Source of the DNA: an uncultured Candidatus Saccharibacteria bacterium
GTDB taxonomy: Bacteria > Patescibacteriota > Minisyncoccia > Phycocordibacterales > UBA9973
NCBI GenBank assembly: GCA_964532495.1
Contig: CAZHJZ010000003.1
Span: forward strand, 3,658-67,657
DNA length: 64,000 nt
Direction: 5' to 3'
Shown here: piece after piece, positions 18,028 through 42,407 of the stretch
Numbering within the stretch: position 1 is the stretch's first letter
Layout: every line of letters starts with the position of its first letter
The notes under the pieces: model-generated
Databases searched by the model: none
Told to the model about the DNA's origin: nothing
The model's input: the letters and a program-made list of their open reading frames with translations, nothing else
Made by a program: the position numbers and the translations under genes

Positions 18028-20559
18028 ATGTTACTCAAGCAAAAACCAGCACAAAAACACCATAGAAAAACCATTATCCGAAATTTATTAATCGGCGCAC
18101 TTTCACTGTTCCTTTTAAGCGGAGGAATACTGATCATCTGGCTTGCAACCCTGCAAGTTCCCGATCTTCGCTCCTTTGAACAGCGCTCTATCCCAAAATC
18201 AACTCAGATATACGACCGCACTGGCAAAATCCTGCTCTATGATTTCCATGGAGACATCAAGCGAACTGAAATTCCTTCAAGCGAAATGTCGAGTTATGTC
18301 AAAAACGCCACCGTCGCTATTGAAGATGCTCAGTTTTATACCAACAAAGGATTCCGTCCGCTTTCATTTATCCGCGCGGCGTTGGTAAACATTACAACCG
18401 GTTCATACACTCAGGGAGGATCGACGATCACCCAACAGGTTGTGAAGAACGCAATTCTTACTCAAGAAAAGACCATCATCCGAAAACTCAAAGAAATCGT
18501 TCTCGCCCTCAAAGTTGACCGTTCTCTTCCAAAAGACCAGATTCTTCAGATCTATTTGAACGAAGCTCCGTATGGTGGAACTATTTATGGCGTTGAAGAA
18601 GCTGCTCAAACATACCTCGGCAAAAAGGCAGCAGACCTTACTCTTGCAGAATCTGCCTACCTTGCCGCTATTCCCCAGTCTCCAAGCCGATACAATCCAT
18701 TTGGAACACACCTTGATCTCCTTGAGGCTCGCAAGAACCTTGTCCTTACCCGCATGAAAGAACTCGGCTTTATTACTGAAGCTGAATACAATGCAGCTAA
18801 AGCAGAAGTCGTTGTGTGGAGCACTCAGAACGCTGGCGGCATCAAAGCTCCGCACTTTGTATTCTTCGTAAAAGACTATTTGGAAAACAAATATGGCGAA
18901 GAGATTCTCAATACAGGACTTAAAGTTATCACTACGCTTGATTACAGCATGCAGCAAACCGGAGAAGAAATCACACTTCGCCGCGCACTTGCTAACAAGG
19001 TTAACAATGCTTCAAACCAGGCAATGGTAGGAATCGATCCTCGCAACGGCCAGATACTTATGATGGTTGGATCACGAAACTTTTTCGACAAAGAAATTCC
19101 TGGCCAATTTAATATCGTTACGGCAAAACGCCAGCCGGGTTCATCATTTAAACCGTTTGTATACGCTCTCGCTTTCAACAAGGGATACACTCCTGAAACG
19201 GTTCTCTTTGATGTTCCGACGCAGTTCAACACTGGCTGTTCACCTACAGCTGGCACCAACAATGCAACTGGCTGTTACGCTCCGCAAAACTATGACGGTA
19301 TTTTCCGCGGACCTATCAGTATTCGTTCCGCCCTTGGACAATCTATCAACGTTCCTGCAGTCAAAACGCTTTACCTCGTCGGTATTCAAAATGCCATCAA
19401 GCTTGCAAACGACATGGGTATCACCACGCTCAAAAATGCTTCTGATTATGGTTTGACGCTTGTGCTCGGAGGCGGGGAGGTTCGCCTGCTTGATATGACT
19501 TCGGCATACGGAGTATTTGCTACTGGTGGTATCAGACACGATCCGACACCGATTATTTCTATCTCTGATTCAAAAGGAAATATTATTGAACAATCCAATC
19601 CTGACGATGCGGGAACTGAAGTGCTCCCAAAACAAACCGCATTGCAGATCAGCAGCATCCTTTCCGACAATATCGCCCGCCAGCCGGAATTTTCCGCTCA
19701 CTCGGCGCTTGTTGTCGACAATCACGATGTAGCTGTAAAAACTGGTACTACAAACAACTTCAAAGATGCTTGGATCATTGGATACACGCCGTCACTGGTA
19801 GTAGGTGCGTGGGCCGGAAACAACGACAATACGCCTATGGTTAAAAAGATTTCTGCCCTCTTGGTCGCTCCAACGTGGAATGAATTCATGACTACGATTC
19901 TCAAGAATGTTCCGAACGAACCGTTTGAGCAGCCGGCTATTGATCCAAATTATGATTCACTTAAGCCTGTAATCCGCGGATCATGGCAGGGTGGCGACAG
20001 CTACTTCATAGACACTATTACTGGAAAGCTTGCGACAGCAGAAACTCCAGAGCAGACAAAGAAAGAAATTATCAGTCCGAATGTTCACGACATCTTGTAC
20101 TGGGTAAATAAAAATGATCCAAGCGGACCAATACCTACAAACCCAGCAAATGATCCTCAGTTTAGAAACTGGGAAACAGCTGTTCAGAACTGGTGGGCAA
20201 CGCATGCCGGAAACTACCCAATCGCTCCAGCTGGTGCAAAACCAACGGAATATGACAATATACATGTTGCGGCAAATAAGCCGCGTATAACGATCCTGAG
20301 CCCTCAGAACGGCACTACAGTAAACAAAGCTGCTCCGCTTACTGTTTCAATTTCCGCTGTTGGTCCGTATCAGATTACCAAGCTCGATGTGTTTATGAAT
20401 AACACGTATGTAGGTTCTCAAACAAATGGAACCACGAGCTATACATTCATCCCCGACTCGACCGGAAATGTAAAAACAGTCAATGAGCTTCGAGTCATTG
20501 CGTACGACACGGTATTCAATTCAGGAGAAGCGACAATAACCTTTAATTCAACACCTTAG
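18028..20559 (+). CDS. mrcA: class A penicillin-binding protein (PBP1A-type glycosyltransferase/transpeptidase) with C-terminal Ig-like extension
   Basis: N-terminal TM segment; GT51 motifs (EDAQFY, QGGSTITQQ, AESAYLAAIPQSPSRYNPF); transpeptidase SxxK (GSSFKPF), SxN and KTGTT motifs. The track ORF starts at 18016. The ATG at 18028 sits 7 nt after an extended -10 TGGTATGAT, so it is the favoured leaderless start. Confidence 0.88.
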   Translation: MLLKQKPAQKHHRKTIIRNLLIGALSLFLLSGGILIIWLATLQVPDLRSFEQRSIPKSTQIYDRTGKILLYDFHGDIKRTEIPSSEMSSYVKNATVAIEDAQFYTNKGFRPLSFIRAALVNITTGSYTQGGSTITQQVVKNAILTQEKTIIRKLKEIVLALKVDRSLPKDQILQIYLNEAPYGGTIYGVEEAAQTYLGKKAADLTLAESAYLAAIPQSPSRYNPFGTHLDLLEARKNLVLTRMKELGFITEAEYNAAKAEVVVWSTQNAGGIKAPHFVFFVKDYLENKYGEEILNTGLKVITTLDYSMQQTGEEITLRRALANKVNNASNQAMVGIDPRNGQILMMVGSRNFFDKEIPGQFNIVTAKRQPGSSFKPFVYALAFNKGYTPETVLFDVPTQFNTGCSPTAGTNNATGCYAPQNYDGIFRGPISIRSALGQSINVPAVKTLYLVGIQNAIKLANDMGITTLKNASDYGLTLVLGGGEVRLLDMTSAYGVFATGGIRHDPTPIISISDSKGNIIEQSNPDDAGTEVLPKQTALQISSILSDNIARQPEFSAHSALVVDNHDVAVKTGTTNNFKDAWIIGYTPSLVVGAWAGNNDNTPMVKKISALLVAPTWNEFMTTILKNVPNEPFEQPAIDPNYDSLKPVIRGSWQGGDSYFIDTITGKLATAETPEQTKKEIISPNVHDILYWVNKNDPSGPIPTNPANDPQFRNWETAVQNWWATHAGNYPIAPAGAKPTEYDNIHVAANKPRITILSPQNGTTVNKAAPLTVSISAVGPYQITKLDVFMNNTYVGSQTNGTTSYTFIPDSTGNVKTVNELRVIAYDTVFNSGEATITFNSTP

Positions 20560-20820: not shown

Positions 20821-21918
20821 CTATCTGTTCATTGGCATAATAAGATACGTAAACGTAGTATCACCAACGCCTTTTACGAGAAGAGGTCGGTTTGAAGAAG
20901 TGCCTTCAAACATAATGCTGTCAGTAGGAATAGCGTTCAAACAATCAAGAAGGTATCGGTAGTTAATCACAACCGTGATTGGTTCCCCAGAAAGCGCAGC
21001 ATCGAGCGTTGCTTCGTTTTCTCCAACGTCACTGTTCTTTGCCGTAAGAACACAGCTCTTGTTTGCTGGATCAATAGCAATCGTTATCTGATTGAACTTA
21101 TCACTAAAAAGGGTGCTGGTCTTTACCGCGTTCATAAGATCGGATTTAAGAATAACCATTTCGCTCGTCTTTTCCTTTGGAAAGATTTTACGGTAATCAG
21201 GAAATACTCCATCAACAACGCGTGAAGTAATATAGTAACCATCAAAAGAAATAGAAAGGAGGTTTTTTGTTATGCAAAAAGAGAGTTCATTTGAAAGTCC
21301 GGAAATAAGACGCATAAGCTCAACTACGTTTTTGTAGGGCACGAGAATTGGCTGAAATCCATATAATCCTTTTATCTTTACTTTCTTTTCTGCGAGTCGG
21401 AATGAATCCGTAGCAACAAACGTAAGGTTGTCTTCTTCTGGGTAGATATAAATGCTGCCGATCTCTGGTTTGATGTCTGTCTGTGCTGCTGAGTAATACA
21501 CCGATTCAAGTCCATCAAGAAACGCGCTCGCTGAAATCTTTATTTTTTCTCCTTCAACTGTGGGGATGGTAGGAAAGTCTTCGTATGGAAATGTCTTAAT
21601 CTGAATTTTTGCCTGCTTGGTTTTTACCAATAGTGTTTCTCCAACTTGTTCAAGGGTTACTTCTTCATTTATCTTGCTATTAGAAAAGAATCCAGAAAGA
21701 ATAGCACCCGAAACCGCGACAACTCCTTCCTTCTCTACCTTTGCAGGTATTTCTATTTCAATACCGAGACTAAGGTTGGTTGCTCGAAGCTTCAACGATG
21801 ATCCTGATGCAATACAAAGAACAGATGAAAGAATCGGTAATGTAAGATTTTTACCGGTTACGCGTTCTGCGTGTATAAGTGCGTTCTTAACTTTTTCACT
21901 GGAGCAATGTATTTTCAT
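20821..21918 (-). CDS. dnaN: DNA polymerase III beta sliding clamp
   Basis: Three-domain beta-clamp pattern with N-terminus MKIHCSSEKVKNALIHAERVTGKNLTLPILSSVL, in canonical position after dnaA. Confidence 0.9.
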   Translation of the reverse strand: MKIHCSSEKVKNALIHAERVTGKNLTLPILSSVLCIASGSSLKLRATNLSLGIEIEIPAKVEKEGVVAVSGAILSGFFSNSKINEEVTLEQVGETLLVKTKQAKIQIKTFPYEDFPTIPTVEGEKIKISASAFLDGLESVYYSAAQTDIKPEIGSIYIYPEEDNLTFVATDSFRLAEKKVKIKGLYGFQPILVPYKNVVELMRLISGLSNELSFCITKNLLSISFDGYYITSRVVDGVFPDYRKIFPKEKTSEMVILKSDLMNAVKTSTLFSDKFNQITIAIDPANKSCVLTAKNSDVGENEATLDAALSGEPITVVINYRYLLDCLNAIPTDSIMFEGTSSNRPLLVKGVGDTTFTYLIMPMNR

Positions 21919-25426: not shown

Positions 25427-26149
25427 ATGCAATACATATGGAACACATTTCTCTATCAGCCACTCTATAACCTCCTTATATTGATAACTAACATCATGCC
25501 TGGCAAGGACGTAGGTTTGGCTATCATTCTCCTTACTATATTGGTAAAGCTCGTTCTTTACCCACTTACAAAGAAATCTATCGAAAGCCAGACTGCTATG
25601 GCTCGCATGCAGCCAGAGCTTGATCGAATCAAGCGAGAGCACCCAGACAAGCAGGAACAGGCAAAGCACACGATGGCGCTCTACAAAGAGCAGAAGACAA
25701 GCCCGTTTTCTGGATGCTTGGTTATGCTTATCCAGCTTCCGATCATCTTTGCTTTGTATTATGTTTTCCTCCACGGCTTCTCAGATACATCGCTCCTCTA
25801 CTCTTTTGTAGGCAACCCGGGTACTCTCAATACTAACTTCTTGGGATTCCTAGATATCACCAAGCCGCACATCGTTCTTGCGATTCTCGCCGGTCTCTCG
25901 CAGTTCATGCAGATGAAGATCTCATTTAGCGGTACGCCGAAGTCGGCAGCCCCATCAGATGGAAAGCCAGATATGACAAAAATGATGCAGACACAGATGC
26001 AATATGTCCTTCCCCTCCTTATCATATATATCGGTACCAGACTTTCAGGGGCAGTTGCACTTTACTGGATTACCAGTAATATAGTTGGAGCAGTGCAGGA
26101 ATATCTGATCCGACGAAAACTCGGCCCGATCCATCTTTCACTCTTCTAA
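25427..26149 (+). CDS. yidC: membrane protein insertase YidC/Oxa1 (short Gram-positive-type)
   Basis: WNTFLYQPLYNLL..., conserved charged TM1, ...ALYWITSNIVGAVQEYLI C-terminal region; 5 predicted TM helices. Confidence 0.85.
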   Translation: MQYIWNTFLYQPLYNLLILITNIMPGKDVGLAIILLTILVKLVLYPLTKKSIESQTAMARMQPELDRIKREHPDKQEQAKHTMALYKEQKTSPFSGCLVMLIQLPIIFALYYVFLHGFSDTSLLYSFVGNPGTLNTNFLGFLDITKPHIVLAILAGLSQFMQMKISFSGTPKSAAPSDGKPDMTKMMQTQMQYVLPLLIIYIGTRLSGAVALYWITSNIVGAVQEYLIRRKLGPIHLSLF

Positions 26150-26160
26150 TACATACCATT

Positions 26161-26652
26161 ATGCAAACAACCCAGATCGAACAAATTGTTAAGGAATTCT
26201 TCAAAGAAACCGGACTCTATGCCGGAGAGGTTTCATTCATCCAAGACGACGATACGAAAACGATCTGGTGTGCGATTTCACTCAACGACGGACGCCTTCT
26301 CACAGGCAAGAATGGTGAAACATTGGCTGCCATCAACCACCTTGTACGAAAGATTATTGAAAAGAATCTTGGTATCAAAGAGGAAGACAAGCAGGCCGCA
26401 TGGAATATAATTGTAGATATAAACAACTTCCAAAAGAAGCGCGTAGATAGCGTTAAAGCAGTGGCTCATATGATGGCAGAGCGTGCTCGATTCTTCAAAT
26501 CAAGCATTGAAGTTGATCCGATGCCGCCGTTTGAACGCCGAATCGTTCACGAATTTCTCTCAAACATGCCTGACCTCAAAACAGAATCTACTGGTGAAGG
26601 AATGAAGCGAAGAGTAGTGATCAAATACGTAGGAAATAACTCAACAATATAA
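26161..26652 (+). CDS. jag: Jag/KhpB-like RNA-binding protein (KH + R3H domains)
   Basis: Immediately follows yidC, as in the yidC-jag operon. The C-terminal R3H-like segment reads ...FERRIVHEFLSNMPDLKTESTGEGMKRRVVIKY. Confidence 0.7.
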   Translation: MQTTQIEQIVKEFFKETGLYAGEVSFIQDDDTKTIWCAISLNDGRLLTGKNGETLAAINHLVRKIIEKNLGIKEEDKQAAWNIIVDINNFQKKRVDSVKAVAHMMAERARFFKSSIEVDPMPPFERRIVHEFLSNMPDLKTESTGEGMKRRVVIKYVGNNSTI

Positions 26653-26693: not shown

Positions 26694-28319
26694 TTATATG
26701 GCTTGTTCTACAGGTGGAGTCAGATCGTATTGCCATAATATGTTTGTATCCCTGTTCATGAAATAGAGGTATCTGTATTTGTCGTCTACCCGCAATCGCA
26801 CGCCGTCTGTGGGTTCGCCGCCTTCCGAGAGCGGGCTAAATAGCTGGCGGTTGTCGTAGTTGCCTGTAGGGTCTATGTACCAGAATGAGTCGGTAAACGA
26901 TACTGTTCCCTGATACCAGCTATCTGGATAGACTGATCCAGCCGGGATAACAGCAGGAACTGCGCAATAAAGACTAGCACTGTCATTTGCCCAGACACAT
27001 TTCTCAGGAAGGCTATAGAGACCGAGGTTTGTTGTTTTATTGGTCGACACATCTTCAAGCGTAAGCGCTGGGCCGTTCTTTGTGTTTTTGCTATACAACA
27101 AGTATTGCCCGTTCGGACTCATAAGCGTTGTGAGCGCGCTCACCGGCCCTACAACCTTTGTGAAATCTCCTTTTGTAAGATCGGTAGTGTAGGCATATCC
27201 TGTGGCGTAGGCTGTTGCTTTGATGGTAAAGACAAGCTTGGTCGGCGTAGCCCACTGAGAAAGCCATCCAAAAAATTGTGAAGAAAATACTTTTTTCTGG
27301 TTCTTGCCATCAAGATCGCTGGTAAATCCAACAAGGTTGCCGCCAGTAGGGAGCAAGTAGAAAATCTGCTTTCCATCGGGTGAAATAGTGAGGTCTGCAA
27401 TATTTTTCGGCATTGCGAACACTGAAAGTTCCGGGAGTGAATCTCCCCCAACGACTGGTTCATTGATCTTTCCGATAAGAGTGTCGATGGTCTCGTTGTC
27501 AGCTTCAAGCGATCGGAGGAATACCTGCGCTCCCTGGTCTCCGAAGAATGCTTGCTGTACGCGAGGAATTGTCGTTGCCGAAAGGCGGGTTGTCTGAAGT
27601 GAATCTGCGAAAGCATCAAAAATGTTGCTTGTTCCTTCCGCGACAAATCGGACAATTTCTTTAAGTACTGTTTCTGGGGTTTCAACCGGGAAAGTACAAA
27701 CAAAACCAGCCTGGAGTTTTTTGATTGTTACCGCGTCTACTATGCCAGTACCATTGGTGAGGTTTTGCGGTTTTAAAATATCATCAGCAAAAAGTTCCTG
27801 GAAGACAGTGATTGCTTTTGCGGTTGCTGGGCCATACAAGGTTCCTTCTTTGCCGGGAGAGCCTGCTCCAGTCGCCGCAACCTGAGTAGCTGGACACTGG
27901 TTAAGCATTTTCTGAAGCTCTGTTACGTCTGTGCCAGTATCCCCCGTCTTGATCTCTTTTGAAAAAGCATATGATGTTGTAATGGTAACTTGTTTTGGTG
28001 CTGGAATGCTGTTTGGATCAACAGGCACTCGCTTTTGCGTAGTGGTGTAGCCAATGACCGGATTAACAGAAACTTTTCGTAGTCGAGGAATTTTTTGCCC
28101 TGGCGTTACAGTTGGTCCGCCCGTTGTCTGTTGCGGCCCGCTAGTCGTATTGTTGTTATTTTGAGCAGGATTTCCTGGCCCGAATGGGAAAAGATCCTTG
28201 ATCGTTACTGGCCCGCCGCCGTTATTCTTCTGTGCGTTTCGATACAGGAAAAATCCAAGGAGAAAAAGCCCGATGAGAACAAAGATAATTATTAAAATGG
28301 TAAATGATTTTTTTGACAT
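26694..28319 (-). CDS. membrane-anchored protein with peptidoglycan-binding (PG_binding_1-like) domain and TolB-like beta-propeller repeats; last gene of the T4SS-like locus
   Basis: N-terminal TM helix (FTILIIIFVLIGLFLLGFFLY); segment GDTGTDVTELQKMLNQ....LYGPATAKAITVFQ typical of the PG-binding domain; repeated SPDGKQIFY / SPNGQYLLYS PD40-like motifs. Confidence 0.6.
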   Translation of the reverse strand: MSKKSFTILIIIFVLIGLFLLGFFLYRNAQKNNGGGPVTIKDLFPFGPGNPAQNNNNTTSGPQQTTGGPTVTPGQKIPRLRKVSVNPVIGYTTTQKRVPVDPNSIPAPKQVTITTSYAFSKEIKTGDTGTDVTELQKMLNQCPATQVAATGAGSPGKEGTLYGPATAKAITVFQELFADDILKPQNLTNGTGIVDAVTIKKLQAGFVCTFPVETPETVLKEIVRFVAEGTSNIFDAFADSLQTTRLSATTIPRVQQAFFGDQGAQVFLRSLEADNETIDTLIGKINEPVVGGDSLPELSVFAMPKNIADLTISPDGKQIFYLLPTGGNLVGFTSDLDGKNQKKVFSSQFFGWLSQWATPTKLVFTIKATAYATGYAYTTDLTKGDFTKVVGPVSALTTLMSPNGQYLLYSKNTKNGPALTLEDVSTNKTTNLGLYSLPEKCVWANDSASLYCAVPAVIPAGSVYPDSWYQGTVSFTDSFWYIDPTGNYDNRQLFSPLSEGGEPTDGVRLRVDDKYRYLYFMNRDTNILWQYDLTPPVEQAI

Positions 28320-28323
28320 AGGT

Positions 28324-29382
28324 TTACCAGTGGGCTACATGAAAATGATTGGCTTCTCGGATAAATATAACACCGTCAAATGTATACTGTCCCGCTTGTC
28401 CGACAGGACACCCGTCTCCGGATTGTCCTGCGATCCATTCATGGCATGTTCTTTTAATTCCAGGGATGCTTTTGATGTATGTTTCAAGTCCGCCTGATGT
28501 GGGATCAAGGTCTACCACTCCACTTCCGATCTCATGGGTTTGGTGGAGCCAGCATTCGCTTGCGCCAGTTAGTATGAGTTTGCAAGAAGCATCTTGGTTC
28601 TTGCAGCTAGCATTTCTAAGTTTTCTGAGCGAGTCTACATATCCGTCACCAAGCTTGTAGACACTGGTGCAGTTCTCGTCGCCCACTAATGCACAGTTTG
28701 ACTTGTTAACTTCTACGCCAACAGCGGATAATTTTACTCGAAATGCTGCGTCATTGTTGTTGATAGCCGGTATTCCTCCCCATGGCTTGCCTTTATCGAG
28801 AGCTACTCCATCAGCCGCTACTGCGTTCACACTACCTTGCTTGCAGTTGGTATTAACAGAAACATTCTGTCCGTTAATCTTGGTTGAGAGGATTCTGTAT
28901 GCGGCCGGTAAGTCGTCCTCACCCTTAACTGAAATGCCGTCGAGAGAGGGAGGGTCAATGCGCACGTCAGTGAGGTGCGGGTTGATGGTATATAAAAGTA
29001 CTACGGAAACAAGAGCGAGAATGATGCCTCCGATAGAGTGCGTGATCATTTCCCTCCCCCCCTCTTTTTTTGAAATGGCATCAGTCGTCATGTATTGAAC
29101 TCCACCGATAACAATCATGATGACACCGAGCGCCCCGATGATGCTGATAAATACTTTGATGATGAGATTGATGTAGTCTGTTGCGTTGGTTGTTGCAGGA
29201 TCATACATATCGTATGTCCCGTTTCCCAATGGAAGCGGTTCAAGCAGGCAGTATTGTCCTGAGTTGCTTTCGTTACAAGCAGCCTGAGCTTTGTGTCCCC
29301 CGGAAGATATTCCAAATACAATAAGTACAACGATGCCAAAGCTGAAGGCGATAAGAGATAGTTTTGCAAGAAAGGTACGCAT
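28324..29382 (-). CDS. VirB2/TrbC-like pilin-family protein with ~200-aa Cys-rich C-terminal extension
   Basis: Signal peptide ending ...HKAQA, then TDYINLIIKVFISIIGALGVIMIVIGGVQYMTTDAIS followed by a second hydrophobic helix (SIGGIILALVSVVLLYT). This is the two-helix TrbC/VirB2 architecture. The C-terminal half carries 10 Cys. Confidence 0.5.
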   Translation of the reverse strand: MRTFLAKLSLIAFSFGIVVLIVFGISSGGHKAQAACNESNSGQYCLLEPLPLGNGTYDMYDPATTNATDYINLIIKVFISIIGALGVIMIVIGGVQYMTTDAISKKEGGREMITHSIGGIILALVSVVLLYTINPHLTDVRIDPPSLDGISVKGEDDLPAAYRILSTKINGQNVSVNTNCKQGSVNAVAADGVALDKGKPWGGIPAINNNDAAFRVKLSAVGVEVNKSNCALVGDENCTSVYKLGDGYVDSLRKLRNASCKNQDASCKLILTGASECWLHQTHEIGSGVVDLDPTSGGLETYIKSIPGIKRTCHEWIAGQSGDGCPVGQAGQYTFDGVIFIREANHFHVAHW

Positions 29383-29385
29383 GAA

Positions 29386-30411
29386 TTACTTTAGATTAAT
29401 AGTAATATTTTTTTCCGCCTCAAGGAAAAGCTTGAGGGTATTTTCAATGGAAACTTTCAAGTTTGAGATTCCCTTGGAGGAGCCGCTTTTGAGAGTAAGG
29501 GTATTTGGGGCATTCGGCGTAGTAACGGTATCGCCGTTGATAGTCCATGTGTATCTGAGCTGAGGAGATGTCGGACTCGCCGGGGAGAAATAATACGGAA
29601 TTGCAACGAGGGTTTTTTCTACTGAAGTTATGTCGTAGGATTTGCCAAGTTCGTGGTTCCAATCAACACCCTTGATGGCATCTCGCGCATACATGAGTAT
29701 TTGCGGTTTAAATATGGGTACGGTAACCGTACCAACTCCAACAGATCCCGTGGTGTTTTCTTGGCTCGTCACCTCGATCTTTTCTTCCTCGTTCAAATAG
29801 CTTTGCTGAAAAACAAGCGCGCTTTTGTTGAATCCTGAGTATTCCGGAATAGCAGCGTCATTTCGCTTCCATCTGAAAACGAAGTTGTTGATGTTTGCTG
29901 TTGTTCCCAGGTTGTTGATCTGAGGAATAGCCACGACTCGGATATACCCTTCAGAGCTCGGCAGCGCTCGTCCTCGGTAAAATGGAGGCGTATATGAATC
30001 AGCTCCCTCCCAGATCAAATCCGCTTCTGATGGGTTGAAGAGCATTCTTTTCTGGATAGCTTCACCAGTAGAGAGGAGCATAGAGACATCGATTGTGGTT
30101 ACCTGTCCAATGTCAGCAGTTGTGAACGTAAACTGGTTTGCTCCGGTTGCTGAAAGGACAGTCTTGCCATCTTTTTTCCAAATGAAAAATGCCCGGCTGA
30201 CATCGGTGAGGTAGCTGTCTACGGTAACAGTTACGTCTTGGAATGCTCCGGGTATTTCTGGTTCTGAAGAAAACGAGACATCTTGCTGGTTGATCTGTGA
30301 GGCTTCTTGGACTGAGAGTTGCGCGTTTGTAGCCAAAGGAAAGAGACCTTCTCCAAAGAAAAGACCGACTCCGATGATTCCCAATATGAGAAATAGAGGA
30401 ATGCGCTTCAC
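29386..30411 (-). CDS. secreted/membrane-anchored hypothetical protein (341 aa), possible VirB8/TcpC-like periplasmic component
   Basis: GTG start; N-terminal TM/signal (IPLFLILGIIGVGLFF). Position between virB4 and the pilin gene. Functional assignment is inference only. Confidence 0.5.
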   Translation of the reverse strand: MKRIPLFLILGIIGVGLFFGEGLFPLATNAQLSVQEASQINQQDVSFSSEPEIPGAFQDVTVTVDSYLTDVSRAFFIWKKDGKTVLSATGANQFTFTTADIGQVTTIDVSMLLSTGEAIQKRMLFNPSEADLIWEGADSYTPPFYRGRALPSSEGYIRVVAIPQINNLGTTANINNFVFRWKRNDAAIPEYSGFNKSALVFQQSYLNEEEKIEVTSQENTTGSVGVGTVTVPIFKPQILMYARDAIKGVDWNHELGKSYDITSVEKTLVAIPYYFSPASPTSPQLRYTWTINGDTVTTPNAPNTLTLKSGSSKGISNLKVSIENTLKLFLEAEKNITINLK

Positions 30412-30545: not shown

Positions 30546-32384
30546 TTACTTCCCTTCCACTTCCTCCAAATCCTGCTTTGCTTTTCGAATCGCAAGGATC
30601 TGTGAAGGATCGGATGTGACGATCTGTTCTTCTGTGTATGATGCAATGATCTTGATAGCTACGTGCTTGAGTCCGGCAAAGAAGATACCTTCTCCGACAC
30701 CTGATTCGAGGAGGAGATACTTTTCTTCGTCTGTTAGGTGGAACACTTTTTGAAGATTGTCGATCGAACTTGGTGATTGCTTGAGCAAGATCTGGATAGA
30801 TGAGTTGGAGACAATTGGCGGGCCGTACTGGCTTTTCATGAAGTCGTCGATATTTTGAGTGATAGTCGCAAGTCCGAGATAGTATTTACGTCCGCGTTTT
30901 GCAATACCGAACAAGAATGACGCTGTGTCTTCTGACTTCATCATGATCCACGCCTCGTCCACGACAAGAAGTCGCTTTTTGAGAGTCTTGCGAACAGCAG
31001 TCCAGATGTGGTGCGTGACGATATACATGGCAACTGGCTTCAAGTCTTCTTCCATGTCTCGGATCGAAAAGACAACAAGGCGCTTGTTGATGTCCACGTT
31101 TGTTGGCTGGTTCAAGAATGTTGACCATGAACCTTTGGTAAATTTCTGAAGACGCTGAAGAATGGATTCTGATCCGTCCATTCCGGCAATAACCATTTCA
31201 AAGTCTGAAAGAAGCGGCGGCTCGGAGTTTCCGAGGTCGCTATCTACAGTAATGTCTTTCAATGCGTATGTTTCAGTAATAGCGCGGTCAACGAGGGCGT
31301 CTTCTTCTGGAGTAAGTCCTCCAAGCATGATACGGAATAGTCCAACAAGTTCGATGACGTTTCGACGGATGACATCCCCTGCTGTTTCATCAGCCGTTGG
31401 CATTGGAAGGTCGAATGGGTTGATGTGGTGATCGGATGAAAGCGAAATATTGAAGTAGCGTCCGCCAACTGCTTCAGCGAGATATTCATATTCTCGTTCA
31501 GGGTCGATAACAATAACATCAGTATCGAACATGAGCGTACGAAGAATTTCGAGTTTTGTCGTAAATGATTTTCCCGAACCGGAAGTAGCGATGGTAACAG
31601 AGTTGTAGTTTTCGAGGGAGAATCGGTCAAAGATAATAAGACCGGAATTGTGACGGTTTACTCCGTACAAAATACCCTTATCTGACGTAAGATCGAATGA
31701 AACGAATGGGAACAAGCTTGAAAGCGGCTCGGAATTGAGCTTCTGGTGGATGTTCAGCATATCGTTTCCAATTGGAATAACGCTTTTGAACCCCTCTTCT
31801 TGCTGGAAAAGCGCCGGTTTTATATAGACCAATTTGGATTCAAGGATAGACTTGATCTCGTTCTCTGTTTTGAAAAGCTCCTGTTCGTTGTCTGCGTAGA
31901 TAGTAATATACAAACCGACGTCGAACATTTTTTGCTGAGCCTGCATCAAGCTGTTACGAAGACCTTCGAGGTCGTTCACAGCAGTATCGAGCATGGGATC
32001 TCGCACGAGGCCCTTGCCTTCGCGAACATTGATCTGGCTTTGCACTTCAGCTACCTTCTTTTGGAATTCTCGAAGAATCTTTTCTGTTTCTATAGGATGT
32101 ATGAAAATTGAAACATCGAAGATCTTGTCGAGGTTGATAACCGGAGAAAACCAGTTGTCGGTAAGGAAACGAGGATATGAAATAACGAAGAATGTTCGAG
32201 CAACCTTGTCTCCGAGGTTGATGGACTTCGGTTCTATTTTGAGAGCAGATGGTGCGATAATGTCGCGGAATTCAAGCGTTGCGGCTTCGTAAATTTCCGC
32301 AGGCAGAACTGGCAAAATACCGCTTGTCGTTTGAGATGACGATGCCGCCGACTTTTTTCCAAATAATGAATCGAGGAAGCTCAT
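30546..32384 (-). CDS. virB4: VirB4-family T4SS ATPase, C-terminal ATPase part (612 aa from MSFLD...)
   Basis: Walker A ATSGSGKSFTTK and Walker B LLVVDEAWIMM; overall TraE/TrsE/PrgJ-like. The track ORF extends 55 codons further upstream in this frame, overlapping the N-part ORF. Confidence 0.85.
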   Translation of the reverse strand: MSFLDSLFGKKSAASSSQTTSGILPVLPAEIYEAATLEFRDIIAPSALKIEPKSINLGDKVARTFFVISYPRFLTDNWFSPVINLDKIFDVSIFIHPIETEKILREFQKKVAEVQSQINVREGKGLVRDPMLDTAVNDLEGLRNSLMQAQQKMFDVGLYITIYADNEQELFKTENEIKSILESKLVYIKPALFQQEEGFKSVIPIGNDMLNIHQKLNSEPLSSLFPFVSFDLTSDKGILYGVNRHNSGLIIFDRFSLENYNSVTIATSGSGKSFTTKLEILRTLMFDTDVIVIDPEREYEYLAEAVGGRYFNISLSSDHHINPFDLPMPTADETAGDVIRRNVIELVGLFRIMLGGLTPEEDALVDRAITETYALKDITVDSDLGNSEPPLLSDFEMVIAGMDGSESILQRLQKFTKGSWSTFLNQPTNVDINKRLVVFSIRDMEEDLKPVAMYIVTHHIWTAVRKTLKKRLLVVDEAWIMMKSEDTASFLFGIAKRGRKYYLGLATITQNIDDFMKSQYGPPIVSNSSIQILLKQSPSSIDNLQKVFHLTDEEKYLLLESGVGEGIFFAGLKHVAIKIIASYTEEQIVTSDPSQILAIRKAKQDLEEVEGK

Positions 32385-32385
32385 A

Positions 32386-33027
32386 TTATTGCAATTTGAT
32401 GGAACGCGAGATGTCCCCTGGATTAAAGACCTTGTAATAAAGCTCAATGGCTTCTTCCGTGCCAACTTGTACTGAACGAACACCCACACGGGTAAGTCCT
32501 TGCTGTACGACTCCGATACGCTGGTCGAGCTGGGTGCGATGTTCTTCAAAGTCGATTACCGCATTGCTTTTTTTTGTGTCACTTGAAGACCGCATGCCTC
32601 CAAAAAGGGATTTGTTGATGGTTCCGGCTCCGAGAGGAGATGAGCTATACGGAACAACGACAATAAACTGCTTTGTCATGATTGCCACTTCATCTGTAAA
32701 GCTGCGGATAAAGTTGATGTATTCTCTGGTTTGGATTTTGAGAAGCGGTTCAAGCTGTTCCTTCATGCGGTTTTCAAGCAAGAGAATGTATGGGCGGATG
32801 TCGAGCTTTCGCGACTGGATAACTATTTGCACCGAAAAGTCGAGCGAGTTCAGGAAGTTTTGAAACTGCATGATGGTTCCCTGCTGCTCATCGGCAGACT
32901 TGAGGGAGAGGTTGACTGATGAGGCGATCAAAAGAGCGCGCATACTCCCATCATTCAAAATAATGATGCCGTCGCGCACTTCCTTGATCGGAACGAATTC
33001 TTGAGTTGCTTTTGCGTTCAGTGCCAT
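32386..33027 (-). CDS. virB4: VirB4-family N-terminal domain encoded as a separate 213-aa ORF
   Basis: KATQEFVPIKEVRDGIIILNDGSMRALLIASSVNLSLKSADEQ matches the conserved N-terminus of Gram-positive-type VirB4 (PrgJ/TrsE-like). The stop is followed by one nt and then the ATG of the ATPase part (TAAtATG). Confidence 0.75.
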   Translation of the reverse strand: MALNAKATQEFVPIKEVRDGIIILNDGSMRALLIASSVNLSLKSADEQQGTIMQFQNFLNSLDFSVQIVIQSRKLDIRPYILLLENRMKEQLEPLLKIQTREYINFIRSFTDEVAIMTKQFIVVVPYSSSPLGAGTINKSLFGGMRSSSDTKKSNAVIDFEEHRTQLDQRIGVVQQGLTRVGVRSVQVGTEEAIELYYKVFNPGDISRSIKLQ

Positions 33028-33118: not shown

Positions 33119-33544
33119 TTACTGTTTGTTCTTTTTTTCCATATCAAGCACATCCAAGCTCCAGGAAAGGTCTTTCAGCTTGGAATTAGAGAGTTTTGGA
33201 ACATAATTGAAGTTTGAAAGAGAAACATCGTCTTTCTTTTCCTCGTCCTCTTTTTTCTTTGCCTTTCTGTTCTGTTTCCAGATATAGAGCTTGGCGCCAA
33301 TATAGTAATTGAAAGCCGATTCCATGATGGCGATAAACGGACGGTTATTTACTTTATAGAATGTAAGTGCAAGCGCGAGAGGAGCTATAATAAGTATGAG
33401 AGGGACAGAAAAATAGATCGGCAAGAGTTTGTAGAGCGCAAATGATGCTCCTCCTCCGCCGACCAAATAGATAAATTGCTTGAACGTGAATGGTCCAAAG
33501 ATCTTGTCTTCCACATCAATAAATTGTGGGACTTGAAATTGCAT
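33119..33544 (-). CDS. PrgI-family / VirB3-like small T4SS membrane protein
   Basis: MQFQVPQFIDVEDKIFGPFTFKQFIYLVGGGGASFALYKLLP then a second TM helix. Matches the PrgI-family N-terminal pattern (V.P.DL..V.DK.F..LT.RQ....G) with two TM segments. Sits directly upstream of virB4. Confidence 0.55.
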   Translation of the reverse strand: MQFQVPQFIDVEDKIFGPFTFKQFIYLVGGGGASFALYKLLPIYFSVPLILIIAPLALALTFYKVNNRPFIAIMESAFNYYIGAKLYIWKQNRKAKKKEDEEKKDDVSLSNFNYVPKLSNSKLKDLSWSLDVLDMEKKNKQ

Positions 33545-33585: not shown

Positions 33586-34353
33586 TTATTCTACTGGCTC
33601 TCGATATGAGTCCCCTGTCTTTGCTCCGACACTGCCTCCGCCTACGTTCTTGATCGTGCGATCTGTCTCTTTTGCTGGCATAGAGAATGTTCCGCCTAGT
33701 TTTCCTGCAAGAATGTCATCGGCAGGCTTTGCCGTCATTGGAATAGGCTGTTTGATAGCGTCTACGGACGGAGCGCCTCCCGCGTATGGAGCGCGAGGAA
33801 CAGGAATAGTTGCGCTAGCTGGCTTCTGAAAGTTCTCATTGAGAACTCGCGGAGTTGAAGGAGCTGGGTTTTCAATGCCTTTGATCATGTCTGCGCGGTT
33901 TTCAGTTGCTCCTGCGGAAGGAGTTTGAGTTGGCGCATCAGGCTGAATAGATACTCCGGACTGTGCGAAAAGGTCTTTTTCTGTTTCTGAAGAAATATCA
34001 TCGCTGCCATCTGTCGGCTTGTACAGATTCATAAGAGATGCACGGATCGGAGTAAATACCTTGTCTTTTATTTCTTGAATGAGTTCGGTAAGTTCCTCTG
34101 GCTTTTGTCCGAGTTCGTGCGCAATATCTTTTTCATACTGTGATGGAGGGGTCATTCCAAGAAGCACCATGGTAGTTTCAAGTTCAAGCGTACCCAATTT
34201 TTCATAGGTAAGCTTGTGCTTCTTCGCTATTTCGAAAAGCTGCATTTGGTAATCGCTTGAAGTGATCGTCTTTTGAATTTCTTCAGGCAAAAGGGTAAAA
34301 CGAGTCTTTAGTTCCTTTTGAAGATCTTCGAAGTTGTCTTTGTTTTTATCCAT
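33586..34353 (-). CDS. hypothetical soluble protein (255 aa) within the T4SS-like locus
   Basis: Track ORF; acidic N-terminal helical region, Pro/Ala-rich C-terminus. Confidence 0.5.
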   Translation of the reverse strand: MDKNKDNFEDLQKELKTRFTLLPEEIQKTITSSDYQMQLFEIAKKHKLTYEKLGTLELETTMVLLGMTPPSQYEKDIAHELGQKPEELTELIQEIKDKVFTPIRASLMNLYKPTDGSDDISSETEKDLFAQSGVSIQPDAPTQTPSAGATENRADMIKGIENPAPSTPRVLNENFQKPASATIPVPRAPYAGGAPSVDAIKQPIPMTAKPADDILAGKLGGTFSMPAKETDRTIKNVGGGSVGAKTGDSYREPVE

Positions 34354-34392
34354 ATAGTATTAGTTATATTGTACCACGCGATTACCTAGTAA

Positions 34393-37300
34393 TTAATGTC
34401 CTCCATGGCCATGGTCGCCGGCATCATGATGTCCTGCATCATGGCTTGCTGGAGCGCTTTCACCTAAGCCCTTAAACATGTCGAATAGTTTTGAGTTCGG
34501 AGCTTTGTACGTAGCGGTAAATTTGTGCGCATGCTGTTCTTTGTGGCTTGCCTGTTCTGCTACTTGCTCTGATTGTCCCTTAAAGTTTCCGCTCCAAGCT
34601 ACTTTTTGATCATTGAGCCCGCTTGATAATCCTCGAGCAAGTCCTTCGTTCAGAGCGTCAGCACCTTCAGTGAACATGACTCGGAACGCAGGCATTACCC
34701 CACCATCCATCGCGCCTTTGACCGCACCAACAACACTTCCAGCGATTCCTCCAGCGAGCACGCTTGCTCCACCAGTCAATCCAGCAGCAAACAATCCTGC
34801 GCCCGCACCCATTGCTCCGCCCGATGCTGCGCCGCTCGCCATTTGCTTGAAGCCGTCACGCACTGCTTGTAAGAGTTCGCGAGAAGTACGTTCGCTACCG
34901 CCACCCTCTGATTGGCTTTTAAGGAATTTGACGTAGTCTTTCTGGCGGACATTCTTTGTCTTTTCGATTTCCTTTTCGTTGTCTTTCTTTTGCTTCTCTG
35001 CTCCGCGTATACCGTTAAAGGTTTTGCCGCCGATCACTATAGGTGCCTTGTTCTTGAGCATATCGACTTGATCATTCGCCCCCTTCACACTACTATCAGC
35101 ATCTGCTTTTGCTTTTAATAAAGTCGCAGGAACTGACTTTGCTTTTGGATTTGCTTCCTTGTATGCCTTGATTGCTTCATTTGCTTCACTCTGTTTATTT
35201 TTTGCAACTTGTTGTTTGCTCTCCGCTTCTTCCAAATCTTCTTTAGGTTTCTTCAGTCCGTCATCAATATCTCCGTTATCATGTTCGAGATGGTGGATCT
35301 TCTCATCATTTTGTCCCAAGAGTTTCTTGAAGCTTTCTTCTTTTGCTGCCTTGCGGTCAACTCGTGCCTGCTGTCCTCCTGCTGTCATGTCAGTACCAAA
35401 CGACTTTGGAGCGATCAAGCCAGCACCCATATTCATATTTACGCCAGTCGCGCTTGAGAGTGCGTTTCCAAGACCAGTCTGGCGAAGATCGAAGCTTGAT
35501 TTTGAAAGCTTGTCGGCACGCTGCAATTTTGCTGCCGCATGCTGCTGTGCACGGAGGGCGTTTCTCTTTCCTTCTGCCGTATCGTCGATCGGGCCGAATT
35601 TGTTTCCATAGAGCTGGCTGAGTTTGGCGGTGTTACCAGACGCAGCATCTTTGAGATCCTGGTTCTGAAGAGTTTTCATAGCTGCTCCGCCGATGAACTT
35701 CGAGCCAAGAGCTGCTGCTCCGCCGGTTACCGCCATTGATGCCATACCTACTCCTGCTGAAACTATTCCAGCAAAGGCTGCACCAAACTGTCCAGCCATT
35801 TCTTCAGCGATTTTCTTGGCTGCCATGAGAAGTCCAATAACGATCATAGTTGGAAGCATGATCGCTACGAGGAATGATACGAAATTTCCGCCGGCGTCAG
35901 TAACCGCGCTCATTGTTGTACCAAGGAGTCCCCCATCATTTCCACCCACGAGGTAAACGACAAGATACAAGAAGAAGAAAAAGACAGGTGCATTGAAGCA
36001 GGCTTTCATGAAACCAGAAAGCCATGTGCTCCATCCGAGTTGCTTCAAATTGCTTTCAAGGCTTGGGACGATACTTGTCACGAATGCTAAAGGCGCAAAG
36101 ATCATTGAGAACCAGATTACGCCAATACGTCCCGCAAAGAAGGCCGCACACATAAAGAATATCCAAGCCAGAGCCATGTTGAGGATAAAGGCGATTAAAA
36201 GTACGAAGAATATGGTTCCAGTACCGACTGTGCCTGTCTGCTTAAGCTTAGCCAAGCTATCAGTGCTGAGGAGCTTTTGTGGCTGCACTCCGCCGACGAT
36301 AACAGCCGAGATGGACTGTTCTTTGACTCCTACTTCGCCAGTAGTTGTTGGAGGGTTTTTCTTGGCACAGTCCTCTCCTTCCTTACAGATATTCATCGCA
36401 TTATAGAAAACTCGCGAGAGAATGTTTGATGCATCGATCGTCACGCGGCAGAAGAATAAGCTGAAGTTGATCAAGAGTCCGATGAGAATAACCTGAGCAA
36501 CTATTTTTTTTGTATTTACGTGGTGAAGCGAAAGAACAAGTCCGAGCGCCGCATAGAGAAGTATGAATATGAAAAAGATATTGGCGATATCGCGAACCAA
36601 GCTCCAGCCGTTTTCAACGAATGAAGCGATGCCTGTACCGGCTGCTCCCTGTCCGTAGATCGTGCTTCCAAGGGAAACAGCGGCAAATGCGTCAAACAGT
36701 CGGCCTGTTGTCTGTGCAAGCCAGTATGATGTTGAGACAAAGATAGAGTTGAATGCTTCAGTGATGCACCCCCCGATATTAATTTTAAACCAAGGTGCAT
36801 CTCCATCCGTAGTAAAACAAGTGAGTTCCGCGCTAAAAGCGTTAGTGTTAGTAGCTGAAAAATCTGGAGTCTCAACGTAGCTGTCTTCTGCTTGCTTTGT
36901 AAGGTCTACGTTTGAGGCAGCAGCTTCTTCTGTTGTCTGCGTCATGATTTCAGTTACAGGACCGAGCGCGAGAAGGGGGCTGCCGATAGCATCTTCTTTA
37001 AGGAGAACTTGGAAATAATATCGGGTGTTTGGGGCAAGGCCAGTAATATGGATCGGCTTACTTGTGACAGGATTTTTTCCGAAGAAAGAATCTCGAGGAT
37101 TTACTTTCCAAAGGTATTGTCCGATGTTAGTGGCTGTAGTTGAGGCAAGAGTTGAGTTGAATGCCACTCCCTGTTTTGGAGCATAAGTGACAGGAGGTAG
37201 ATTTGGCTTTTCTACTACAATTGGATCAACGGCATAGCTATTAAAATTGCCTCCTACGATATCGAGCGTCGTGTTAGGAAAAGTCTTTTTTTCAGTTCCG

Positions 37301-37647
37301 ACCAAAAGAAAGACACCTTCCGTCATGCTATCTTCGTGTCTATTGTCGACAAGGATCTCGTCCCAAGCTCCCGAGCTGTCACCCATATCGAAATAGTTCT
37401 CTATAGAACCATTGTCTTGGGCTACTGCGCCAGTAAACCGTATAGTGACATCAAGCAAGACGCTCTTGTCATCCTTTCCTTTTTCAGCAAGAGTTGCAGC
37501 CGTAAGTTTTCGGAAATAGCCAGGGCCTGATGTCATTGAGAACGTGCCTTCAAAAGACGCTTCAGCTTTTTTTAGTCCGCCCCACGGAAAAAGCATACTG
37601 GCGAGTATGACGAAGGTCGCTATAAGTGCGCTTACTTTCTTCCGCAT
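34393..37647 (-). CDS. VirB6/TrbL-like polytopic membrane protein (1084 aa) with N-terminal extracellular domain and C-terminal Gly-rich and His-rich tail
   Basis: Signal peptide. After ~330 aa there are >=8 hydrophobic helices separated by short loops (IANIFFIFILLYAALGLVL, ILIGLLINFSLFF, IFFVLLIAFILNMALAWIFFMCAAFFAGRIGVIWFSMIFAPLAF, VFFFFLYLVVYLVGG, LVAIMLPTMIVIGLLMA...), the hallmark of TrbL/VirB6 proteins. Long charged C-terminal region ends in HDAGHHDAGDHGHGGH. Confidence 0.6.
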   Translation of the reverse strand: MRKKVSALIATFVILASMLFPWGGLKKAEASFEGTFSMTSGPGYFRKLTAATLAEKGKDDKSVLLDVTIRFTGAVAQDNGSIENYFDMGDSSGAWDEILVDNRHEDSMTEGVFLLVGTEKKTFPNTTLDIVGGNFNSYAVDPIVVEKPNLPPVTYAPKQGVAFNSTLASTTATNIGQYLWKVNPRDSFFGKNPVTSKPIHITGLAPNTRYYFQVLLKEDAIGSPLLALGPVTEIMTQTTEEAAASNVDLTKQAEDSYVETPDFSATNTNAFSAELTCFTTDGDAPWFKINIGGCITEAFNSIFVSTSYWLAQTTGRLFDAFAAVSLGSTIYGQGAAGTGIASFVENGWSLVRDIANIFFIFILLYAALGLVLSLHHVNTKKIVAQVILIGLLINFSLFFCRVTIDASNILSRVFYNAMNICKEGEDCAKKNPPTTTGEVGVKEQSISAVIVGGVQPQKLLSTDSLAKLKQTGTVGTGTIFFVLLIAFILNMALAWIFFMCAAFFAGRIGVIWFSMIFAPLAFVTSIVPSLESNLKQLGWSTWLSGFMKACFNAPVFFFFLYLVVYLVGGNDGGLLGTTMSAVTDAGGNFVSFLVAIMLPTMIVIGLLMAAKKIAEEMAGQFGAAFAGIVSAGVGMASMAVTGGAAALGSKFIGGAAMKTLQNQDLKDAASGNTAKLSQLYGNKFGPIDDTAEGKRNALRAQQHAAAKLQRADKLSKSSFDLRQTGLGNALSSATGVNMNMGAGLIAPKSFGTDMTAGGQQARVDRKAAKEESFKKLLGQNDEKIHHLEHDNGDIDDGLKKPKEDLEEAESKQQVAKNKQSEANEAIKAYKEANPKAKSVPATLLKAKADADSSVKGANDQVDMLKNKAPIVIGGKTFNGIRGAEKQKKDNEKEIEKTKNVRQKDYVKFLKSQSEGGGSERTSRELLQAVRDGFKQMASGAASGGAMGAGAGLFAAGLTGGASVLAGGIAGSVVGAVKGAMDGGVMPAFRVMFTEGADALNEGLARGLSSGLNDQKVAWSGNFKGQSEQVAEQASHKEQHAHKFTATYKAPNSKLFDMFKGLGESAPASHDAGHHDAGDHGHGGH

Positions 37648-37699
37648 TCTGTAAGTAAGTATACCCTAGTTGTTTGATTTTAGGAATGAGAAAACACTG

Positions 37700-37735
37700 T
37701 GGGGATAACAAAACCCCCGGAAGGAGATCCTTCCG
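37700..37735. terminator. strong terminator aaaacccccggaagg-agat-ccttccgggggttttt
   Basis: 11-bp GC-rich perfect stem flanked by A4/T5. Lies between the 956-aa gene and the VirB6-like gene, so the locus is at least two transcription units. Confidence 0.7.
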
Positions 37736-37750
37736 GGGGTTTTTATAAAG

Positions 37751-40621: not shown

Positions 40622-40633
40622 TATGAGTGCTAA

Positions 40634-42406: not shown

Positions 42407-42407
42407 A

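Follow-up and report, generated by a model that had tools for sequence, protein, structure and literature searches.

A VirB2-like pilin hairpin joined to a putative cell-wall enzyme domain in the oriC-proximal type IV secretion operon of Paceibacteria

The pilin-fusion gene and its product

The window analysed here is a 64-kb stretch of DNA (64,000 nucleotides of contig CAZHJZ010000003.1), and the subject of this report is a single gene on its minus strand that encodes a protein of 352 aa (Table 1). In this protein a leader peptide and a hydrophobic hairpin resembling VirB2, the pilin of type IV secretion systems (T4SSs), precede a Cys-rich C-terminal domain of ~190 aa (residues ~160-352), which we have named CDOM. 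Judging from its conservation and from the domains found at the same position in related species, it is most likely that CDOM is a metal-dependent enzyme acting on peptidoglycan. The gene starts 3 nt after the stop codon of an upstream 341-aa gene (p341), and a gap of only 4 nt separates its end from a downstream 541-aa gene (p541). A word-indexed search with the full protein returned 47 homologues at E ≤ 1e-3, about 20 of which are ~350 aa long and share its layout. Since homologues of the same architecture exist, CDOM recurs in many protein clusters and the operon is tightly packed, this is a real conserved gene and not a chance open reading frame (ORF).

The leader consists of a positively charged start (MRTFLAK), a hydrophobic core of 18-20 residues and a signal-peptidase-I-type site, KAQA/AC, and in the alignment of homologues a small-x-small (A-x-A) site ahead of a conserved Cys is maintained. 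Together with the two helices of the hairpin (residues 67-99 and 103-133 by AlphaFold2, AF2, and hydropathy), this bears out the signal peptide and two-helix hydrophobic core proposed in the first-pass annotation, all of whose quoted peptides are present in the ORF. The mature N-terminal segment carries a conserved Y-C-L-L-E-P-L-P motif and the C36/C45 pair, and the more general form of the motif, Y-x-(P)L-x-P-L-P, is also found in short stand-alone pilins at the syntenic position. The linker that follows the hairpin opens with a conserved INPxL..(I/V)R(I/L)DPP motif. With ~318 aa the mature protein does extend beyond canonical pilin size by an additional domain, as had been noticed at the outset. 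The ten cysteines then reported for the C-terminal part are the total for the whole protein (residues 36, 45, 180, 230, 238, 260, 267, 277, 313 and 325), but only eight of them belong to that part.

Table 1. Position of the pilin-fusion gene, its parts and the neighbouring genes in the window (res, residues; pLDDT, predicted local distance difference test score; PBP, penicillin-binding protein; TM, transmembrane).
Feature	Position	Strand	Basis or remark
847-aa ORF	18016..20559	+	Class A PBPs (Transgly + Transpeptidase) at the equivalent position of related loci
dnaN	20821..21918	-	Position and size
dnaA	22128..23489	-	phmmer match to locus ORFs carrying Bac_DnaA
yidC	25427..26149	+	Pfam match in window; convergent to operon
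jag/R3H	26161..26652	+	Pfam match in window; convergent to operon
p541, conserved downstream gene	26694..28319	-	Weak PG_binding_1; positional conservation
Pilin-fusion gene (this gene)	28324..29382	-	ATG start, 352 aa; PF18895-like hairpin and CDOM
Leader/signal peptide, res 1-34	29281..29382	-	Hydropathy and charge analysis; AF2 helix 2-26
Mature N-terminal extracellular segment, res 35-66	29185..29280	-	Alignments; AF2 beta-hairpin 44-60
VirB2/PF18895-like two-helix hydrophobic hairpin, res 67-133	28984..29184	-	PF18895 match; AF2 helices; hydropathy
Linker, res 134-160	28903..28983	-	Low-confidence/disordered; pLDDT <50 at res 140-154 (AF2); alignment
Variable N-terminal sub-domain of C-terminal region, res 161-195	28798..28902	-	AF2 beta-hairpin and helix; contains C180
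CDOM core, res 196-352	28327..28797	-	Conservation over 170 sequences; AF2 model
Motif 1, T-G-(G/A)-(T/S)-E-C-W-L-H...H-x2-G-x4-D, res 272-293	28504..28569	-	Invariant columns; candidate metal-binding/catalytic loop
Motif 2, E343-x-x-H346-x-H348 on last beta-strand	28339..28356	-	Conservation over 170 sequences
p341, signal/TM and beta-rich, weak PKD-like	29386..30411	-	Conserved upstream partner; always between VirB4 and pilin gene
VirB4-type ATPase, 612 aa from ATG 32384	30546..32384	-	P-loop_TraG E=5e-27, AAA_10, DUF87
p213, TraC-like N-terminal-domain protein preceding VirB4	32386..33027	-	Named from positional orthologues (PF26593 TraC-like) and synteny
PrgI/VirB3-like protein	33119..33544	-	PF12666, E=1.5e-10
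p255	33586..34353	-	No Pfam assignment
p1084	34393..37647	-	No Pfam assignment
p956	37751..40621	-	No Pfam assignment
p303	40634..41545	-	No Pfam assignment
KsgA/RsmA rRNA dimethylase	41609..42439	-	PF00398, E=4e-49

The pilin-like hairpin

The hairpin is the best-conserved module of the protein, with a mean column identity of 52% in the alignment. By hydropathy and charge analysis its helices flank a KK..R loop; the conserved charged loop reads GGVQYMTTDAISKKEGG and the stretch between the two AF2 helices reads TDAISKKEGGREM, and across the family the loop pattern GG(V/I)QYMTTDA.S.KE.GK is nearly invariant. Residues 65-128 match positions 3-67 of the 71 in the PF18895 (T4SS_pilin) profile at E=5.6e-5, and the score of 23.6 bits falls just short of the gathering score of 26.6 bits. 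The Pfam scan gave no PF04956 (TrbC/VirB2) match in this protein. In a sample of 40 diverse family members, PF18895 was matched by 35 (best E=1.3e-12) and PF04956 by 6 (E ≤ 0.01), and most homologues carry a precomputed PF18895 match. The pilin-like assignment is supported at the level of the family and borderline for this copy. No VirB2 or TraA sequence in the PDB was matched by the pilin-module profile, and the Foldseek matches of the full-length model (histidine-kinase, coronavirus M-protein) were discarded as spurious, being driven by the helical hairpin.

Since the leader ends in an A-x-A site, the charged loop would lie on the cytoplasmic side and the cysteines are even in number and paired, we infer that both ends of the hairpin are outside and that the C-terminal domain is extracytoplasmic, which agrees with the placement first suggested for it. 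More than 150 aa precede the hairpin in 42 of 142 CDOM proteins (for example P0051, P0058, P0062, P0093, P0129 and P0189). Modules resembling fn3 / Pur_ac_phosph_N and fn3/PKD were also detected among the sampled relatives; if the fn3 / Pur_ac_phosph_N-like modules lie in these N-terminal extensions, extracellular domains would flank the hairpin on both sides.

Conserved residues and distribution of CDOM

Folded alone by AF2, CDOM gave a confident model of a compact alpha/beta domain (pLDDT 91.5, predicted template modelling score 0.84). Its variable N-terminal sub-domain is modelled as strands 163-169 and 172-178 and helix 182-189 (pLDDT >95) and is absent in about half of the family. In an alignment of 170 CDOM sequences that are elsewhere only ~21-36% identical, T239, H280, H283, D291, H346 and H348 are kept in every sequence, E276 in 169, W278 in 167 and E343 in 164. 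The spacing between H280 and H283 varies across the family. Conservation extends to the cysteines, with C230 and C238 kept in 169 sequences each, C260 in 166 and C267 in 165. The number of Cys is even in 163 of the 170, and C180 co-occurs with C277 (82 sequences with both, 75 with neither, 13 discordant). The combination of invariant His/Asp/Glu residues and paired cysteines fits a secreted metallo-enzyme with a disulfide-braced active site, in which H283, D291 and H346 or H348 are candidate metal ligands and E343 or E276 is the candidate general base.

When CDOM alone was used in an exhaustive profile search, at least 1,711 clusters (at 50% identity) were matched at E ≤ 1e-3, and for 878 of these the match reached E ≤ 1e-10. 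Proteins with this fusion, which the first-pass annotation had proposed to look for, are abundant: of the 150 top cluster representatives, 142 have the hairpin directly upstream of CDOM. Three of the remaining eight are short, at 131-192 aa, and are probably fragments, whereas the N-terminal region of the other five, 117-139 aa in length, may contain a divergent hairpin. The CDOM-core profile gave only 13 matches in a word-indexed search, all of them unnamed or called 'hypothetical protein', and added no new architectures. CDOM is nearly exclusive to the hairpin fusion architecture, and the source databases label its proteins 'hypothetical'.

Comparison of CDOM with known families

CDOM had no match in Pfam, NCBIfam or PHROGs, and a scan of 23 C-domains with PHROGs and NCBIfam found nothing consistent. 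Profile searches of PDB sequences with alignments of 23 and 52 sequences were likewise negative. In contrast to the confidence of the AF2 model, the Foldseek search of that model yielded nothing significant in the PDB (best E=0.58) or BFVD (best E=0.51), and LAS enzymes were absent among the 50 best matches listed for each of these libraries. Patterns of the NodB-type H-x3-H, HExxH, metallo-beta-lactamase and amidase_2/3 kinds were rejected by eye, since they misfit CDOM in spacing and order and the H280-H283 spacing is variable.

In the order of its motifs CDOM resembles the LAS/M15 zinc peptidases (MEROPS M15 VanX/VanY/LdcB; Hedgehog/DD-peptidase fold). The motifs of M15 are S-G-Y-R, S-x-H-x2-G-x-A-x-D and E-x-x-H, and Hedgehog/M15A enzymes have H-x-H. 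CDOM shows the order H-x(3-7)-D followed by (E-x-x-)H / H-x-H, as H283-x7-D291 and E343-x2-H346-x-H348, and the motifs are collinear with those of M15: a strand ending in T-G-G-T-E takes the position of S-G-Y-R, H-x2-G-x4-D that of H-x2-G-x-A-x-D, and a helix and beta-strands then lead to the C-terminal E-x-x-H(-x-H). Furthermore, sister proteins hold true VanY/M15_4 domains in the same slot. CDOM differs in that its H-to-D spacing is one residue longer and in having the additional invariant H280, the near-invariant E276 and two conserved disulfides, and it lacks significant profile-profile or Foldseek similarity to LAS structures. When CDOM was compared by hhalign with the VanY/M15_4 tails of sister loci, the expected motifs were aligned (Motif 1 on 'SPHGKGVAAD' and Motif 2 on E-x-W-H of the VanY tails) without reaching significance (P=0.12-0.38). 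The VanY tail of the homologue P0019, used as a word-indexed query to build an M15 alignment, found nothing. Membership of LAS/M15, which had been suspected from 'THEIGSGVVD' and 'ANHFHV', is unsupported by Pfam, PDB profiles, hhalign and Foldseek; a LAS/M15-like site fits the motifs, and membership is not established and serves here as a hypothesis only.

A distant relative was found among the proteins of the sister loci themselves. The P0025-type tails (P0025 together with L049, L050, L053, L061, L068, L069 and L070) have no Pfam match and carry the motifs vTEAWPPT..H..CH..GTCvD ... HFSVY. hhalign aligned CDOM with this family at P=9.5e-4 over 82 columns, with all three motifs in register and Motif 1 placed on 'TEAW..H..CH..G.C.D', whereas five comparisons involving other tail families (VanY, C3, C4, C5) gave P=0.12-0.93. 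The P0025-type family sits in the same slot after the same hairpin. It differs from CDOM in having a single His in the last motif and in lacking the C230/C238 and C260/C267 pairs, and it is equally uncharacterised. It is the only relative of CDOM for which the comparisons give some, albeit weak, support, and the two may define one superfamily.

Exchange of C-terminal domains behind a constant hairpin

The survey of related loci took one genome per GTDB species and returned 79 loci. At every locus the slot between p341 and p541 encodes the leader, the Y.(P)L.PLP motif and the hairpin, and the part downstream of these differs by species. CDOM is the tail at 28 loci. Among the 45 other tails of at least 100 aa, Pfam recognised SLT in 6, NlpC/P60 in 5, YkuD, VanY and SLT_3 in 4 each, and Peptidase_M15_4 and Phage_lysozyme2 in 1 each, while ~8 are of the P0025 type and ~12 are without Pfam or family assignment. 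At least about 20 of the 45 are thus recognisable peptidoglycan enzymes, and all the Pfam-recognised domains in the slot act on peptidoglycan. The occurrence of such enzymes in the orthologous slot suggests that the C-terminal domain of the protein in the window is also a cell-wall enzyme.

Five species (loci L041, L052, L058, L063 and L074) have in this position a short stand-alone pilin-like protein of ~110-130 aa with no enzyme tail, and there is no hydrolase ORF between it and p541. Some loci have two hairpin-enzyme genes: YkuD and SLT with p541 in between (L031), an unassigned tail and VanY in adjacent genes (L038), and CDOM and a weak SLT in adjacent genes (L047). The pairs in L031 and L047 hint that CDOM fills a non-glycosidase slot. 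Over the covered part of the query (43%, including the hairpin), the homologue P0019 shares 63% identity with the window protein, and its tail is a VanY domain (SGYR...SPHGKGVAADI...EAWHYEY) and not CDOM; such similarity of the hairpin in front of a different tail indicates a recent domain exchange.

The surrounding operon

The order p956-p1084-p255-PrgI-TraC-like-VirB4-p341-pilin-X-p541, then jag/yidC/dnaA, is the same in almost all of the 79 loci with enough flank. The loci are labelled as Paceibacteria/Parcubacteria lineages (Nomurabacteria, Zambryskibacteria, Paceibacterota), many as 'uncultured Candidatus Saccharibacteria', which we take to be a generic label, and one (L019) as Flavobacteriaceae. 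The best explanation of these comparisons is that the gene would be a fixed component of an oriC-proximal, monoderm-type (MPF-FATA-like) chromosomal T4SS of Paceibacteria (Patescibacteria, the candidate phyla radiation, CPR). An MPF-FATA-like, oriC-proximal T4SS in Patescibacteria is already described in PMC12102498, and the operon in the window matches it.

Upstream of the PrgI/VirB3-like gene, p255, p1084, p956 and p303 (33586..41545) gave no Pfam match apart from one weak one; by position and by analogy with SEML1_0011-0013 of Southlakia epibionticum they are candidate VirB8/VirB6-like components. The window copy of p213 has no Pfam match at E ≤ 0.01. VirB4 appears to be split, with p213 as a separate gene followed by a VirB4 of 612 aa (orthologues have 611-612 aa); in the sequence TAATG the VirB4 ATG at 32384 comes directly 3' of the stop codon of p213 (32386..32388). 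By starting at a TTG at 32549, the mechanical ORF call over-extends VirB4 by 55 codons. In a single metagenome-assembled genome (L059:8912-10366, plus strand), p341 and the hairpin are read as one ORF of 485 aa without an enzyme tail, which reflects either an assembly error or a Rosetta-stone fusion, the latter suggesting an interaction of p341 with the hairpin.

Downstream, p541 is always paired with the pilin-enzyme gene. In its product an N-terminal TM helix is combined with a low-complexity linker of Gly, Pro, Asn and Thr, an insert resembling PG_binding_1 and a TolB/PD40-like beta-propeller region in which two cysteines are invariant. The window copy matches PG_binding_1 at E=1.8e-4 with 22.1 bits (cutoff 23), and among 40 orthologues the domain was found in 9 (best E=9e-12) and PD40 in 6. 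Housekeeping genes lie on either side of the locus, one encoding KsgA/RsmA and the other being the 847-aa ORF, which, if it encodes a class A PBP as its counterparts do, implies that the organism makes its own peptidoglycan. An Rfam scan at gathering thresholds found no RNA family in the window, not even a tRNA.

Discussion

We infer the catalytic activity, metal dependence, substrate and target of CDOM from the position of its gene in the operon, the constant hairpin with variable peptidoglycan-enzyme tails, the invariant residues of the domain, its predicted location outside the cell and the PG_binding_1 domain of p541. The balance of this evidence leans modestly towards the CDOM protein being a hairpin-tethered, VirB1-like cell-wall hydrolase of the T4SS. 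The protein would be exported by the Sec pathway and its leader cleaved, after which the VirB2-like hairpin would be inserted in the cytoplasmic membrane, its two ends facing outwards. A flexible linker of ~25 residues would then hold the disulfide-stabilised, ~190-aa CDOM in the cell-wall compartment and let the enzyme reach the wall, where it would cleave or remodel peptidoglycan at the site of T4SS assembly in a role of the VirB1 type. Fusion to the T4SS's own pilin-like subunit would be the means of delivering the enzyme to the assembly site. Within this proposal a peptidase or amidase is favoured over a glycosidase. That the target is the cell's own wall has, in our estimation, not quite an even chance, and the wall of a host cell would be an unlikely target.

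Several observations weigh against the proposal of a tethered wall hydrolase. YkuD is classically a transpeptidase and not a hydrolase, and the YkuD tails may imply that what the tails share is acting on or binding peptidoglycan rather than cutting it. CDOM matches no enzyme family by Pfam, PHROGs, NCBIfam, PDB profiles or Foldseek against PDB and BFVD; LAS/M15 structures should be well represented in both Foldseek libraries, yet they were unmatched, and the hhalign comparisons with the VanY/M15 tails stayed at P=0.12-0.38. Positional equivalence with peptidoglycan enzymes is guilt by association, with ~12 of the 45 tails unassigned and ~8 more of the orphan P0025 type. A binding domain whose metal site is purely structural could also account for the invariant His/Asp/Glu residues. 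Finally, fast swapping of C-terminal domains between close relatives is also typical of host-directed effectors.

This last point leads to the possibility that the hairpin is a polymerising VirB2-type pilin, so that the fused enzymes would be displayed on the filament or at its tip and would digest the host wall. A constant N-terminal delivery module joined to a variable enzyme would resemble polymorphic effectors or 'evolved' VgrG/PAAR proteins, and the repertoire of lysozyme/SLT, NlpC/P60, M15 and YkuD mirrors known antibacterial effector classes that target peptidoglycan. The hairpin and its loop are conserved (52% mean column identity) far beyond the needs of a simple anchor, and the occurrence of the hairpin alone at the same position in some species implies that it has a function of its own. 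A hidden Markov model built from the family hairpin found no other pilin-module ORF in the 64-kb window (E ≤ 1), the tails are swapped between close relatives, and the T4SS of S. epibionticum is essential for epibiotic growth. However, no variable immunity-like gene follows the fusion gene, the downstream p541 being conserved, and the N-terminal extensions of more than 150 aa in 42 of 142 family members are hard to fit into the tight packing of a pilus. On geometric grounds a 22-kDa domain on each subunit would crowd the surface of an F- or T-type pilus. T4SSs of Patescibacteria are not known to form a pilus, and a monoderm T4SS in any case requires a hydrolase for the wall of its own cell. 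We consider such an armed pilus unlikely. Its fullest form, in which each subunit of a conjugative-type filament made from a single VirB2-like pilin carries a swappable wall-degrading enzyme, the ultrasmall epibiont bores through the host wall with it and CDOM represents an unseen metallo-hydrolase fold, appears to us somewhat less likely again.

The first-pass annotation had taken the C-terminal domain for a disulfide-rich tip or adhesin domain of a pilin, which would bind a ligand on the host surface without being an enzyme. CDOM is indeed predicted to be extracellular, Cys-rich and disulfide-paired, it found no match to an enzyme family or fold, and fn3/PKD-like modules occur in some relatives. 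However, what stays invariant in the 170 divergent sequences is a set of four His, one Asp and one Thr, to which two near-invariant Glu can be added, whereas adhesin surfaces normally vary. Furthermore, bona fide enzymes (SLT, NlpC/P60, VanY/M15, YkuD and lysozyme-like) occupy the same slot in sister species. An adhesin is therefore improbable in our view, and this part of the annotation has been given up. A metallo-enzyme acting on something other than peptidoglycan (a nuclease, a phosphatase, or a protease on host surface proteins or T4SS substrates) would be compatible with a His/Asp/Glu constellation that does not fix the substrate, with a domain without fold assignment and with T4SSs of Patescibacteria that may serve in nutrient or DNA acquisition, but it is very improbable given that every Pfam-recognised domain in the slot acts on peptidoglycan and that the neighbouring p541 has a peptidoglycan-binding domain.

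The tethered wall enzyme has to be set beside what is reported for these systems. PMC11665869 and PMC10633639 describe the T4SSs of Patescibacteria as widespread and adjoining the replication origin, and in the single species examined as essential for epibiotic growth. VirB2-like PF18895 genes near virB4 are already published for Patescibacteria (PMC12102498, PMC10633639 and PMC12857230). According to PMC12102498 (Quinonero-Coronel et al.), most Patescibacteria with VirB2-like genes are without a recognisable VirB1, from which it is concluded there that the putative pilus would need none. Our survey suggests, contrary to that conclusion, that in Paceibacteria the wall-active domain is usually part of the VirB2-like gene itself: with at least about 20 of the 45 non-CDOM tails being peptidoglycan enzymes, and with 28 CDOM loci, the hydrolase would be hidden inside the 'pilin' calls. 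In PMC12102498, PMC10633639 and PMC12857230 we found no description of a pilin-hydrolase fusion, and a search of the text of PMC12102498 for one returned nothing. Such a fusion may explain how the T4SS gets through the cell wall. As a large orphan family (at least 1,711 clusters) with a candidate active site, CDOM is a concrete target for biochemistry and structure determination, and the pairing of one hairpin with many enzymes offers a natural experiment on whether the T4SS is aimed at the cell's own wall or at that of the host.

Comparison with known systems

Compared with the VirB2/TrbC pilins (PF04956, and the CPR-type PF18895 as in the SEML1_0014-0019 array of S. epibionticum), the protein shares a cleavable leader, two hydrophobic helices, a short charged loop and termini predicted to be outside. 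Its gene also shares a T4SS operon with VirB3/PrgI and VirB4, and by profile it resembles PF18895 and, in some family members, TrbC. It differs in size, the mature protein being ~318 aa compared with ~70-120 aa and ending in a globular, enzyme-like domain of 190 aa, and some of its relatives have large N-terminal domains. S. epibionticum has an essential array of PF18895 pilins (SEML1_0014-0019), whereas each locus here has a single gene of this kind. This copy scores below the gathering threshold of PF18895, and polymerisation into a pilus is here only putative.

The VirB1-like hydrolases of monoderm T4SSs (PrgK of pCF10, TraG of pIP501, CwlT of ICEBs1 and TcpG of pCW3) are membrane-anchored and encoded beside virB4, and PrgK and TraG are essential for transfer according to papers cited in PMC12102498. 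In S. epibionticum, as described in PMC10633639, virB4 is followed directly by essential genes for a lysozyme/Cys-protease protein and for a protein whose C-terminus is a Hedgehog/DD-peptidase domain. The gene in the window resembles these hydrolases, SEML1_0006/0007 included, in lying near virB4 in an MPF-FATA-like operon, here two genes downstream of VirB4, and in encoding an N-terminal membrane anchor or signal followed by an extracytoplasmic domain. Its positional orthologues have SLT, NlpC/P60 and M15 domains, which are the same classes. Unlike the known hydrolases, it would be anchored by a VirB2-like hairpin instead of a single TM helix or a lipobox, its C-terminal domain, unmatched in Pfam, NCBIfam and PHROGs, falls outside the known hydrolase families, and it has one domain in place of the usual pair of glycosidase and peptidase. 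The presence of VirB2-like PF18895 genes by virB4 and the need of monoderm T4SSs for a peptidoglycan hydrolase are already known. What is probably new, though not categorically so, is a T4SS wall hydrolase that would combine a VirB2-like anchor with a new family of catalytic domain.

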